NCBI GenBank assembly: GCA_015064745.1
Contig: SVRR01000006.1
Location: forward strand, 115-64,114
Length of the DNA: 64,000 nt
Direction of reading: 5' to 3'
Origin: Oscillospiraceae bacterium
GTDB lineage: Bacteria; Bacillota; Clostridia; Oscillospirales; CAG-272
The notes under the pieces are model-generated. The model was not told where the DNA came from. It was given only the letters and a program-made list of their open reading frames with translations, and did no database searches. The translations under genes were made by a program, and so were the position numbers. Positions 42,640 through 52,271 of the stretch are shown one piece after another; position 1 is the stretch's first letter, and every line of letters begins with the position of its first letter.

Positions 42640-43707
42640 TCAGACTTCTTTTCTCCAGCCGAAGGGATCGTCACGGCGTCCCCATTGGATGCCGGTGATC
42701 TCGTCGTACAGCTTTTGGGTCAGCTCACCGATATCGCCCTTACCGATCTGCATCACGTCATCCATGTAACGGAGCTTACCGACGGGGGAAACGACGGCGG
42801 CGGTACCCGTGCCGAAGACCTCTTCCAGAGAGCCATTCTTCGCGGCAGCGACCAGCTCGTCAACCGAGATGCGGCGCTCCTCTACCTCATAGCCCCATGC
42901 GCGGCAAAGGGTCAGAACGGAATTACGGGTAACGCCGGGGAGGATCGAGCCGTTAAGCATCGGCGTGACGATCTTGCCTGCGATCTTGAAGAAGATGTTC
43001 ATTGCGCCAACCTCTTCAATATACTTTCTCTCCACACCGTCAAGCCACAGAACCTGCGAATAGCCGTCGTCGTGCGCTTTGACCTGCGCGATAAGAGAAG
43101 CTGCGTAGTTACCGCCCGTCTTGGCAAAGCCCATACCGCCCTTGACGGCACGGACGTACTCGTCCTCGATCCAAATACCTACGGGAGCAAGACCGCTTTC
43201 ATAGTATGCGCCCGAGGGAGAAAGAATGACCATAAAGAGATAGGTCTTAGAGGGAGCAACGCCAAGGAAATCGTCGGTAGCGATCACGAAGGGACGAATG
43301 TAAAGCGAGGTGCCGGGCTCGGTGGGGATCCAGTCCTTATCCACTTCAACGACGGCGCGTACAGCCTCTACGAAGTCCTCTTCGGGAATGTTCGGGATGC
43401 AAAGACGGTCGTTCGACTGATTGGCACGCTTTGCGTTCATGTCGGGGCGGAAAAGGTATGCTTTTCCGTCGTCACCCATATACGCCTTCAATCCCTCAAA
43501 CATCTCCTGACCGTAGTGGAAAACCATGGACGCGGGAGAGAGAGAAAGGTTCTGATAGGGAATGATGCGAGCGTCATGCCAGCCCTTGCCTTCCGTGTAG
43601 TTCATCACGAACATATGGTCGGTGAAAATATGTCCGAAGCCAAGCTTTTGACCCTTCGCGGGCTTTGCCTTGGGGGCAGTGGTTTTTTCGATCTTGATAT
43701 TCAGCAT
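42640..43707 (-). CDS. ilvE: Branched-chain amino acid aminotransferase
   Basis: HYGQEMFEGLKAY, SLYIRP, AKTGGNYA, ILPGVTR. Confidence 0.97.
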   Translation of the reverse strand: MLNIKIEKTTAPKAKPAKGQKLGFGHIFTDHMFVMNYTEGKGWHDARIIPYQNLSLSPASMVFHYGQEMFEGLKAYMGDDGKAYLFRPDMNAKRANQSNDRLCIPNIPEEDFVEAVRAVVEVDKDWIPTEPGTSLYIRPFVIATDDFLGVAPSKTYLFMVILSPSGAYYESGLAPVGIWIEDEYVRAVKGGMGFAKTGGNYAASLIAQVKAHDDGYSQVLWLDGVERKYIEEVGAMNIFFKIAGKIVTPMLNGSILPGVTRNSVLTLCRAWGYEVEERRISVDELVAAAKNGSLEEVFGTGTAAVVSPVGKLRYMDDVMQIGKGDIGELTQKLYDEITGIQWGRRDDPFGWRKEV

Positions 43708-43731
43708 GTTTTTTGCCTTCTTTCTGTCGAA

Positions 43732-44271
43732 TTATTCTGCGTAGTTATAGCCCGTTTCGATTGCTTTGAGATTGATCTCAAGCAGATCGGCGTGTTTTGC
43801 CGAAACGACCTTGGAAAGAGCATCACGAATGCCCTCGTAGGACACAATGCCCGTTTCACGGATCAGCTTGCCTACCATGATCATGTTGGCAAGCGTGGGG
43901 AAGCCTGCTTCCTTTGCAAGGCGGGTGGCGGGAATGTAGAACGCTTCTACGTCGGCGCGCTCTACCTTACGCTCAATGAGGGTGGAATCCACGAAGATCT
44001 TACCGCCCGCGACGGTCGCGCTCTCGTACTTGTCAAGCGAGGGAAGATTCATCACCATCAAAACGTCGGGATTGGAGACGATGGGCGAGCCAACGGGCTC
44101 GTCGCTGATAATGACGGAGCAGTTTGCCGTACCGCCGCGCATTTCGGGGCCGTAGGAAGGAAGCCAGCTTAACTGCTTGCCCTCAAGAAGTCCCTTGTAC
44201 GCGAGGAATTTACCTGCGAACAGAACACCCTGTCCGCCGAAGCCTGCAATCAAAAGATTGGTCGTTTTCAT
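43732..44271 (-). CDS. 2-oxoacid:ferredoxin oxidoreductase gamma subunit
   Basis: [22 protein letters not shown] overlap with the beta subunit stop. Confidence 0.95.
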
Positions 44272-45020
44272 TGTGCGTCCTCCTTCGTCTTGTCGCGGTA
44301 TACGCCGAGAGGATAATAGGGGATCATCTTCTCTTCCACCCATTCCAGCGCCTTGTCGGGCGTCATACCCCAGTTGGTGGGGCAAGAGGATACCACCTCA
44401 ATAAGAGAGAAGCCGCGTCCCTCGACCTGGTTGCGGAACGCCTTCAGAATTGCCTTCTTCGCGTTCTTTACGTTCTTCACGTTATTGACGGCAACGCGCT
44501 CGATATAGGTAGGCGCGTCAAGCGCGGAAAGAAGCTCAGCGACCTTCACGGGAAGACCAGTCAGCTTAGGATCGCGTCCGTAGGGAGAGGTCTGGGTGAC
44601 CTGACCGGGAAGCGAGGTGGGCGCCATCTGACCGCCCGTCATACCGTAAATGGCGTTGTTGACGAAGATGATGGTGATATTTTCGTTTCTTGCGGCGGCG
44701 TGCACCGTCTCTGCCATACCGATGGAGGCAAGGTCGCCGTCACCCTGGTAGGTAAATACGATGTTATCGGGACGACCGCGCTTGATACCCGTTGCAACGG
44801 CAGGAGCACGTCCGTGTGCCGCCTCGATCATATCACAGGTAAAGTAGTCGTACGCCATAACGGCACAGCCAACAGGGGCAACGCCGATCGCGCGTCCCTC
44901 AATGCCAAGCTCATCAATTGCCTCAGCCACAAGACGATGAATGATACCGTGGGTACAGCCGGGGCAGTAGTGGAAGGGCACATTTGCCAAGGACTTTGGT
45001 TTTTCAAATACAACGCTCAT
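44268..45020 (-). CDS. 2-oxoacid:ferredoxin oxidoreductase beta (TPP-binding) subunit, VOR-type
   Basis: YCPGCTHG, GDGD, NNAIYGMTGGQ. Confidence 0.95.
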   Translation of the reverse strand: MSVVFEKPKSLANVPFHYCPGCTHGIIHRLVAEAIDELGIEGRAIGVAPVGCAVMAYDYFTCDMIEAAHGRAPAVATGIKRGRPDNIVFTYQGDGDLASIGMAETVHAAARNENITIIFVNNAIYGMTGGQMAPTSLPGQVTQTSPYGRDPKLTGLPVKVAELLSALDAPTYIERVAVNNVKNVKNAKKAILKAFRNQVEGRGFSLIEVVSSCPTNWGMTPDKALEWVEEKMIPYYPLGVYRDKTKEDAQ

Positions 45021-45023
45021 TGC

Positions 45024-51945: not shown

Positions 51946-51969
51946 ACGTATGCTCTCCTTTCACGGGAC

Positions 51970-52225
51970 AAACAAAAATCCGTCCCAAAGAATTCTTTGA
52001 GACGGATAATATCCGCGGTACCACTCAAATTGTACTCTTACGAGTACCACTCATCGAGCTCTGACAAGCTCTGTGCTTTCACGCAGCCATACGGAAAGAC
52101 CTACTTGCTTTTGCTTTGGGACTTTCAGCTCGGAAGTGATAAAATGGAGGCACGCTTGCTGTCGGATTTCCACCGTCACCGACTCTCTATGAGGGCGTTT
52201 GCCGCATTCGTCTTCGTCATAGCCT
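51970..52225 (-). ncRNA. T-box riboswitch, probable Ile (AUC) specifier
   Basis: GA motif, AGAGA and GGTGGAA loops, T-box AATTTGAGTGGTACCGCG (52031-52014), terminator at ~51971-52008; ATC at 52140-52138. Confidence 0.92.
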
Positions 52226-52242
52226 TTATAAATTATAAAAAA

Positions 52243-52271
52243 ATTATAGCACCGCTTTTTCCATTTGTCAA
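52243..52271 (-). promoter_or_regulatory. Sigma-A promoter of the Ile T-box leader
   Basis: Perfect TTGACA-N17-TATAAT with TG extension. Confidence 0.9.

Follow-up and report, generated by a model that had tools for sequence, protein, structure and literature searches.

We analyzed a 64,000-nucleotide stretch of contig SVRR01000006.1 (assembly GCA_015064745.1, from an Oscillospiraceae bacterium), referred to here as the window, and found on its minus strand, at positions 42577-52271, one gene cluster that carries at its 5' side two tandem units of promoter, T-box leader and acyl-coenzyme A (acyl-CoA) ligase gene, followed by genes for a P-loop protein, a four-subunit 2-oxoacid:ferredoxin oxidoreductase and the aminotransferase IlvE (Table 1). 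The specifier codon is that of isoleucine (Ile, AUC) in leader 1 and that of valine (Val, GUA) in leader 2. We read this cluster, with a probability of about 0.72, as a salvage-type operon for Ile and Val biosynthesis, in which two tRNA-sensing leaders would each control a ligase, the first for 2-methylbutyrate and the second for isobutyrate, and the activated acids would then be carboxylated reductively. Biosynthesis by reductive carboxylation appears well supported, and the function of the leaders (antitermination), the substrates and the direction of flux are predictions made from sequence. An earlier reading of the same DNA, made from its letters without database searches (the sequence-only reading), had claimed duplicated promoter/T-box/ligase units; both units were found on the minus strand, each with a promoter, a match to the T-box family RF00230, a terminator and a ligase.

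Leader 1 matches RF00230 with a score above the Rfam gathering score of 93 bits. In the cmscan alignments, the codon position reads AUC-A-CUUC-CGAGC in leader 1 and GUA-G-CUUC-CGAGC in leader 2, exactly where the sequence-only reading had placed the two specifiers (ATC at 52140-52138 and GTA at 49509-49507), and the related loci described below concur with these calls. The CUUC that follows the codon pairs with GAAG beyond the kink-turn in both leaders and forms the 3' strand of the lower Stem I helix. A purine is usual directly after a T-box specifier codon, and both window leaders have one there (A and G, respectively). The leader of ileS in the same genome served as an internal control and reads AUC-A in the same register above the same lower Stem I. 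This ileS leader (contig C4:12546-12746) is itself a low-scoring match at 57.8 bits, with an antiterminator region that fits the T-box consensus poorly.

As the usual specifier-loop letters are unmatched in leaders 1 and 2, the specifier call was extended to related loci instead of resting on single sequences alone. A scan of species-representative genomes with both ligases returned at least 365 relatives, and 76 loci were kept, mostly from metagenome-assembled genomes (MAGs) of gut and rumen Clostridia. Leader 1, leader 2 and the ileS leader were used to build a Stem I covariance model, which was then searched against these 76 loci (1.15 Mb) and the window and gave 94 Stem I hits. The specifier column of these hits (ATC 48, GTA 30, GTC 8, CTG 3, CTC 3, TAC 1, TTC 1) is ATC, GTA or GTC in 86/94; GTA and GTC are synonymous, and the bases that flank the codon are variable. 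The register of the specifier is anchored by the adjoining helix, which is 99.7% paired with compensatory changes over the 94 hits in an alignment fitted to the model. In the same model-fitted alignment, Stem I as a whole is 90.2% paired versus 65.1% in shuffled sequences, and 25/25 pairs have changed on both sides. Two other registers were considered and rejected. A shift by +1 would give UCA/UCC in Ile leaders but UAG/UAA/UCG in Val leaders, and a shift by -1 gives mixed codons, so that the register used here is the sole one with one amino acid per leader class. Read by eye, almost every related Ile leader has a TTGACA box 5' of it, and visual inspection of the promoter regions, with no motif search run, revealed no conserved operator or palindrome.

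The 3' halves of both leaders also have the elements expected of T-box riboswitches. Each contains the antiterminator bulge GAGUGGUACCGCGG (UGGU) and the T-box sequence UGGUACCGCGG, in agreement with a UGGN bulge. In the RF00230 structure lines, the 5' strand of each terminator hairpin, which is followed by a T run, is the 3' strand of the UGGUACC-bearing antiterminator, and the two structures are mutually exclusive in both leaders. The tRNA-Val(UAC) gene of the same genome ends in CCCACCA, and its discriminator is therefore A. The sequence-only reading had held that UGGU suits the A discriminator of both tRNA-Ile and tRNA-Val; the bulge and the ACCA end of tRNA-Val(UAC) bear this out, and the part on tRNA-Ile lacks its gene in the assembly.

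The ligases and leaders appear to have diverged together. Ligase 1 and ligase 2 are 67-68% identical over their full length, and leaders 1 and 2 are mutually nearest in the genome (64% identity versus 42-58% to the other five leaders), which indicates that the whole promoter-leader-ligase unit was duplicated. We labelled 106 ligase genes by the specifier of the upstream T-box (47 Ile, 33 Val and 26 without a detected T-box), and found that the Ile/Val label changes only 2 times over the 80 labelled rows of a maximum-likelihood IQ-TREE tree of all 106 ligases, with which a FastTree topology agrees in shape. Two core sister clades are pure: one of 47 rows (40 ATC, 7 unlabelled, 0 Val) and one of 35 rows (26 GTA, 3 GTC, 6 unlabelled, 0 Ile). 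The second label change concerns a small GTC clade that lies outside the core and comprises four single-gene loci. Ligase-1-like genes stand behind ATC leaders and ligase-2-like genes behind GTA/GTC leaders, except in two loci of this outlying GTC clade (L044 and L046), in which the ligase is marginally closer by score to ligase 1. On deeper branches the N-terminal helix-turn-helix (HTH)-cupin part of the ligases, described below, is a separate gene; some of these forms have ATC leaders, and the Stem I covariance model gave no T-box hit for the split forms of Desulfovibrio. The claimed co-divergence of riboswitch and enzyme thus holds, with the reservation that related rows share labels by descent, so that what is seen is stable inheritance after one duplication and not repeated correlated change. 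The tree shows a history in which the unit was apparently duplicated once, each copy keeping its specifier since. Both paralogs are present in 33 loci, and the layout is stable as 26/33 of these keep a T-box before each ligase. Furthermore, in 23/23 loci with at least 5.2 kb of sequence downstream, the P-loop gene, the four oxidoreductase genes and IlvE come after the Val-clade ligase.

The downstream genes were also as claimed, in that Pfam and NCBIfam matches agree with an ATPase, a four-subunit oxidoreductase and ilvE. By Pfam, the oxidoreductase has the four-subunit architecture of 2-oxoisovalerate:ferredoxin oxidoreductase (VOR), with separate alpha, beta (thiamine pyrophosphate-binding), gamma and delta (2x[4Fe-4S]) subunits; its substrate range and reductive direction are assigned here by context only. 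The names that databases give to relatives of the P-loop protein are generic (CobQ/MinD/ParA). A role of this protein as a NifH-like electron donor was considered and rejected, as it contains no cysteine and its weak similarity to MinD/ParA/Mrp is limited to the Walker A region. The hairpin at 42577-42604 likely marks the end of the operon. Elsewhere in the genome, at a contig end (C24:30401-30613), lies a 71-residue fragment that is 88.7% identical to the C-terminus of IlvE, which may reflect mixed strains in the MAG or a second copy truncated where the contig ends.

The sequence-only reading had suggested a check for the standard pathway (ilvBCD), and none of its genes was found: ilvB, ilvC and ilvD had no match in the genome that holds the window (1.70 Mb in 41 contigs, 89.9% complete), and 14/14 control genomes were matched. 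A 99% complete genome of the same genus likewise has no ilvD match, and its ilvC match is only 19.7 bits versus a cut-off of 226. Across the family, in an even sample of 61 genomes whose members are related and not independent, the ligase was found in 41 and ilvD in 21, with ilvD missing from 30/41 of the ligase-holding genomes. The genomes with at least two ligase matches rarely have ilvD (4/31, with 27/31 lacking it), and those with a single match often do (7/10). We examined the ligase stretches of 10/11 ilvD-positive ligase-holding genomes, and 6/10 have an ATC (Ile) leader only (G056, G008, G022, G054, G018 and G045); among the others, G048 has ATC and GTA, G046 has GTA, and G028 and G015 have no Stem I hit. 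This pattern fits a scenario in which the Val-type copy can be lost once valine is made from pyruvate.

T-box leaders switch on in response to scarcity of an amino acid, sensed as uncharged cognate tRNA. Under the biosynthetic reading, uncharged tRNA-Ile would pair with the AUC of leader 1 and, through its ACCA end, with the UGGU bulge, which would stabilize the antiterminator and allow transcription of ligase 1. Uncharged tRNA-Val(UAC) at the GUA of leader 2 would turn on ligase 2, the P-loop protein, the oxidoreductase and IlvE. Ligase 1 would convert 2-methylbutyrate and ligase 2 isobutyrate to the CoA thioester, each at the expense of ATP to AMP. With reduced ferredoxin, the oxidoreductase would carboxylate these acyl-CoAs reductively to 3-methyl-2-oxopentanoate and 2-oxoisovalerate, which IlvE would transaminate to Ile and Val, respectively. 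Together, the logic of T-box control and AMP-forming chemistry point to synthesis, not breakdown.

We next consider which acids the two ligases may take. Their identity as acyl-CoA ligases had been claimed, and the AMP-binding domain is present (Pfam scores of 211.3 and 209.8 bits, with core motifs TSGTTGYPK, YHTGD and a C-terminal SGKI); what did not hold is that they are plain ligases, as each (754 and 766 aa) combines HTH_3, Cupin_2 and AMP-binding domains in one fused protein. The nearest solved relative of the ligase domain is the medium-chain acyl-CoA synthetase MacsMa of Methanosarcina acetivorans (PDB 3ETC; E-value 1e-182, residues 214-751). This archaeal enzyme aligns from residue 214 of ligase 1 onward and has no counterpart of the HTH-cupin part; it shares with the ligases the YHTGD motif and Gly at the place of Trp414 of Acs. 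The Gly of its GWGK motif corresponds to Gly459 of ligase 1, which is Ala in ligase 2. An excerpt of PMC10455477 reports, second-hand, that MacsMa prefers 2-methylbutyrate, and names as a mark of Macs-type enzymes a Gly that replaces Trp414 of AcsSe, the Trp that closes the acetate pocket. The ligase sequence EGFGQTE aligns with DTWWQTE of E. coli Acs, which makes position 414 Gly in both ligases. Among NCBIfam models, the top match of both is MbcS of Staphylococcus aureus (NF047394; 427.5 and 443 bits); both fall far below its equivalog cut-off of 850 bits and are thus not members, and the model (525 positions) covers residues 238-754 of ligase 1 only, without the HTH-cupin part. According to the part of PMC10026030 available, MbcS activates 2-methylbutyrate and isobutyrate, isovalerate poorly and acetate not at all, and serves as one enzyme for both acids in the supply of lipid primers, in contrast to the two paralogs here, which are tied to amino-acid signals, an oxidoreductase and IlvE.

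We defined a paralog-specific residue as one that is at least 85% conserved within each core clade and different between the clades, and found 12 in total. The differences in the ligase domain both sit in the motif GW[G/A]KA[L/M]W (GWGKALW in ligase 1 and GWAKAMW in ligase 2), with Gly459 in 46/47 rows of the Ile clade and Ala in 35/35 rows of the Val clade. These Gly/Ala and Leu/Met sites align with E. coli Acs residues 310 and 313, of which we take residue 310 to line the acyl pocket (a literature search on Acs pocket residues gave nothing). A smaller residue (Gly) for the acid that is one carbon larger would match the assignment of 2-methylbutyrate to ligase 1 and isobutyrate to ligase 2 that the leaders predict.

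The other 10/12 paralog-specific residues (Y43C, H56Y, K57R, L70I, A75P, E94A, I97M, I99Y, K109R and F139C) lie in the HTH-cupin module that opens both ligases. Of the columns conserved in both clades, 10/71 differ in the N-terminal part versus 2/261 in the ligase part (odds ratio 21, p 5e-6, with columns and rows that are not independent), which suggests that the sensor or DNA-binding half has undergone more directed divergence than the catalytic half. The N-terminal 200 residues were modelled as a five-helix HTH and a cupin barrel with a mean confidence (pLDDT, predicted local distance difference test) of 87.3. The top fold matches of this model are the epoxidase HppE (E-value 1.2e-14) and 1Y9Q, an HTH_3-cupin regulator of Vibrio cholerae (E-value 2.5e-14 by fold and 0.0019 by sequence); TM-scores to both are modest (0.40-0.47), as the two domains are placed differently relative to each other. 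Unlike in HppE and 1Y9Q, the module here is fused to an adenylate-forming enzyme. Across 50 sequences, His134 and Glu138 do not vary and His172 is conserved in at least 90%; the three resemble a 2-His-1-carboxylate metal site. Other lineages have the HTH-cupin part and the ligase as split genes, which argues that both halves work together. Four loci from Desulfovibrio and relatives (L068, L069, L071 and L072) have two consecutive pairs of separate HTH-cupin and ligase genes, one pair with the Macs type and one with the ligase type of the Leu module described below, and no T-box hit, so that an HTH-cupin partner accompanies either kind of ligase.

A tentative idea, which we hold to be possible and rather less than an even bet, is that each ligase is a self-regulating enzyme with the distinction between Ile and Val mostly in the sensor and not in the active site, where the His-Glu-His site of the cupin would bind a paralog-specific small molecule and thereby gate ligase activity, DNA binding or both. 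The ligand could be Ile or Val, a 2-oxoacid or a branched acid. If so, the committed step would be controlled twice and independently, by tRNA charging acting on the T-box and by a metabolite acting on the cupin. BirA and PutA are enzyme-repressors, and a self-regulating ligase would resemble these.

Several observations weigh against the operon as we read it. Leader 2 scores 83 bits and thus lies under the gathering score of RF00230, with an E-value of 1.4e-18 in a 501-base scan and an alignment over the full model (1-219). The specifier-loop letters AGUA...GAA, which like the purine after the codon we take to be T-box consensus features, are unmatched in the cmscan alignments of both leaders, and the modest RF00230 scores result from this; the same genome has ileS, Leu, Tyr and Trp leaders that align to these letters. 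The base after ATC in related Ile leaders is A in 25, C in 22 and G in 1 (n=48), so that a C often stands in place of the purine. The genome is 89.9% complete, and no tRNA-Ile gene was found in its assembly. Across the family sample, ilvD is present in 11/41 ligase holders, and the module is therefore not a strict replacement of the standard pathway. In 7/33 two-paralog loci no T-box was detected on one or both genes (in two of these a contig end truncates the Ile-clade gene), and in L017 and in L023 and L025, both Lachnospiraceae MAGs, the ligase genes are 13-54 bases apart with no T-box between, which means that separate gating is not universal. As to substrates, only 2/12 paralog-specific residues lie in the ligase domain, and as MbcS takes both acids, the specificities of the paralogs could overlap. 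Finally, the oxidoreductase and IlvE lie behind leader 2 only, so that Ile starvation alone would raise ligase 1 and not the next two steps, which the simple model fails to explain. This could result from leaky termination, from coupled scarcity of both amino acids or from an effect of the HTH-cupin module.

One alternative is the same pathway with ligases that are not specialized. Both enzymes would take both acids, the duplication would be regulatory only, in that either starvation signal would increase the total ligase activity, and the paralog-specific residues would mirror differences in HTH-cupin sensing and not in the acyl pockets. The ligase domains of the two paralogs are very similar, most of the fixed differences are N-terminal, and MbcS activates both acids (in the part of PMC10026030 noted above). 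We nevertheless consider this unlikely, as the two ligase-domain differences are clustered in one motif at Acs 310 and 313 and nearly fixed (46/47 Gly versus 35/35 Ala), the paralogs are retained side by side in 33 loci, and 6/10 of the ilvD-positive genomes examined show an Ile leader only, as expected if specifically the Val-type copy is dispensable where valine can come from pyruvate.

The remaining explanations differ in the direction of the pathway. The ligases might mainly supply branched acyl-CoA primers for membrane fatty acids when Ile or Val, from which such primers usually derive, is short, with the oxidoreductase and IlvE working oxidatively. The lipid primer role of MbcS in S. aureus (same part of PMC10026030) favors such a use, and acyl-CoA is a shared intermediate, so that lipid and amino-acid uses could coexist. 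As the main function it is quite improbable, since it would be self-defeating to induce a valine-consuming oxidoreductase and transaminase at uncharged tRNA-Val, in 23/23 loci the Val leader precedes the full co-transcribed gene set, and a cell in which ilvBCD was not found needs some source of Ile and Val. Least credible, and in our view very improbable, is a catabolic operon in which Ile and Val would be fermented to acyl-CoA by way of IlvE and the oxidoreductase, with the ligases running in reverse or serving detoxification. Reversibility of the oxidoreductase and the transaminase is established biochemistry, and such oxidoreductases are said to act oxidatively in amino-acid-fermenting anaerobes; a T-box, however, switches on at amino-acid scarcity, AMP-forming ligases run towards the thioester, and gene and domain annotation gave no phosphotransacylase or kinase gene within the operon.

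A third module in the same genome concerns leucine (Leu). At contig C4:4198-8368 (locus L009), a T-box whose specifier is CUC (Leu) lies 5' of the genes for a 495-aa LeuA-like protein (HMGL-like and LeuA_dimer domains), which lies below all isopropylmalate synthase cut-offs, and for an 824-aa protein in which a xylose-isomerase-like TIM barrel is fused to a different AMP-binding ligase. This third ligase was found in 25 related loci, mostly directly 5' of the Ile leader, 13/25 of which also hold the LeuA-like gene, and 6/94 Stem I hits have a CTC or CTG specifier. In the same genome, leuB has a 30-bit match only, and the only aconitase-family gene is a 658-aa open reading frame. The third module probably does the same for isovalerate and leucine. 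Isovalerate, a poor substrate of MbcS in the part of PMC10026030 available, would thus have its own enzyme. If the self-regulation considered above were true, the LeuA-like protein, with the regulatory domain of LeuA, would be a leucine sensor beside the third ligase.

Both leaders share with known T-box leaders (RF00230) a Stem I that holds a specifier loop, distal AGAGA and GGUG motifs, the UGGN T-box and competing helices. They differ from these in the genes under control, which are acyl-CoA ligases and an oxidoreductase, in the tandem arrangement of two paralogous leaders with different specifiers in one operon, and in the unmatched specifier-loop letters and the C that often follows the Ile codon. 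A T-box survey (PMC2494555) has 0 occurrences of CoA or ferredoxin, and searches of the searchable full-text literature returned no paper that joins a T-box with acyl-CoA synthetase, branched-chain and ferredoxin oxidoreductase, with ketoisovalerate ferredoxin oxidoreductase or with isobutyrate. The chemistry of the proposed pathway and its habitat are those of the rumen route, as many related loci come from rumen and gut MAGs; the original work on this route reportedly dates from the 1960s. The conversion of branched short-chain acids to Val, Ile and Leu by reductive carboxylation is described as established in rumen anaerobes and methanogens in excerpts of PMC7356843 and PMC2812497. In searchable papers the rumen route is a matter of physiology without ligase genes or control, in contrast to the one T-box-gated ligase gene per amino acid here, and the searchable literature on branched-acid growth of rumen and gut anaerobes leaves the ligase genes and their regulation unassigned. 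The mechanism and the pathway are therefore of known kinds, and the riboswitch-labelled ligase genes, the co-divergence with the specifier and the HTH-cupin fusion were not found in searchable papers.

It has been known for decades that rumen and gut anaerobes grow on isobutyrate, 2-methylbutyrate and isovalerate. The RNA switches tag each ligase gene with the amino acid that it would serve, which yields substrate predictions for a family present in at least 365 stretches of species-representative genomes. Many small-genome Clostridia without ilvBCD may still make branched-chain amino acids, with a bearing on predictions of auxotrophy, on cross-feeding models and on branched-chain acid supplements in ruminant feed. 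The loci also provide a clean natural case of a specifier and an enzyme diverging together after one duplication, and the HTH-cupin-ligase fusion represents unstudied biochemistry in which the sensor half holds most of the paralog-specific change.

Table 1 Features of the gene cluster, in window coordinates and in the order of transcription.
Feature	Position	Strand	Details
Promoter P1	52243..52271	-	TTGACA-17-TATAAT, TG extension; sigma-70, 12/12 match
T-box leader 1	51995..52229	-	specifier AUC (Ile) at 52140-52138, UGGU bulge; RF00230 94.7 bits
Terminator of leader 1	51968..52007	-	13-bp stem then TTTTTGTTTGT; -24.1 kcal/mol, z -4.77
Ligase 1 (Ile-type), 754 aa	49681..51945	-	Pfam: HTH_3 15-69, Cupin_2 133-187, AMP-binding 251-620, AMP-binding_C
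Promoter P2	49612..49640	-	TTGACA-17-TATACT, TG extension; sigma-70, 11/12 match
T-box leader 2	49345..49596	-	specifier GUA (Val) at 49509-49507, next base G, UGGU bulge; RF00230 83 bits
Terminator of leader 2	49321..49358	-	14-bp stem then TTTGTTTATTC; -22.4 kcal/mol, z -2.94
Ligase 2 (Val-type), 766 aa	46984..49284	-	ATG at 49284 preceded by GGAG; Pfam: HTH_3, Cupin_2 and AMP-binding as in ligase 1
P-loop ParA/MinD-like protein, 218 aa	46314..46970	-	cysteine-free; ParA 27.8 bits
Oxidoreductase delta subunit, 2x[4Fe-4S] ferredoxin, 68 aa	46092..46298	-	Pfam Fer4; below all NCBIfam equivalog cut-offs
Alpha subunit of 2-oxoacid:ferredoxin oxidoreductase (VorB)	45024..46079	-	NF005507 533.8 bits, cut-off 399; POR_N and PFOR_II
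Oxidoreductase beta subunit, thiamine pyrophosphate-binding	44268..45020	-	TPP_enzyme_C; below all equivalog cut-offs
Oxidoreductase gamma subunit	43732..44271	-	POR 128.7 bits; below all equivalog cut-offs
IlvE, class II branched-chain amino acid aminotransferase	42640..43707	-	NF009897 505.9 bits versus cut-off 307; TIGR01123 421.3 versus 250
Hairpin after ilvE, 12 bp, terminator-like	42577..42604	both	

Beyond the terminator of the operon, metY (of the O-acetylhomoserine sulfhydrylase type) and metA (of the homoserine O-acetyltransferase type, above its cut-off) follow at 40048-42488 on the minus strand, and no Rfam family reaches its gathering score in front of these two genes. The window further contains an S10-Clostridia ribosomal protein leader at 10999-11071 on the minus strand (44.2 bits versus a gathering score of 35.1) and a tetrahydrofolate (THF) riboswitch at 61505-61600 on the plus strand (83.8 bits versus a gathering score of 36).

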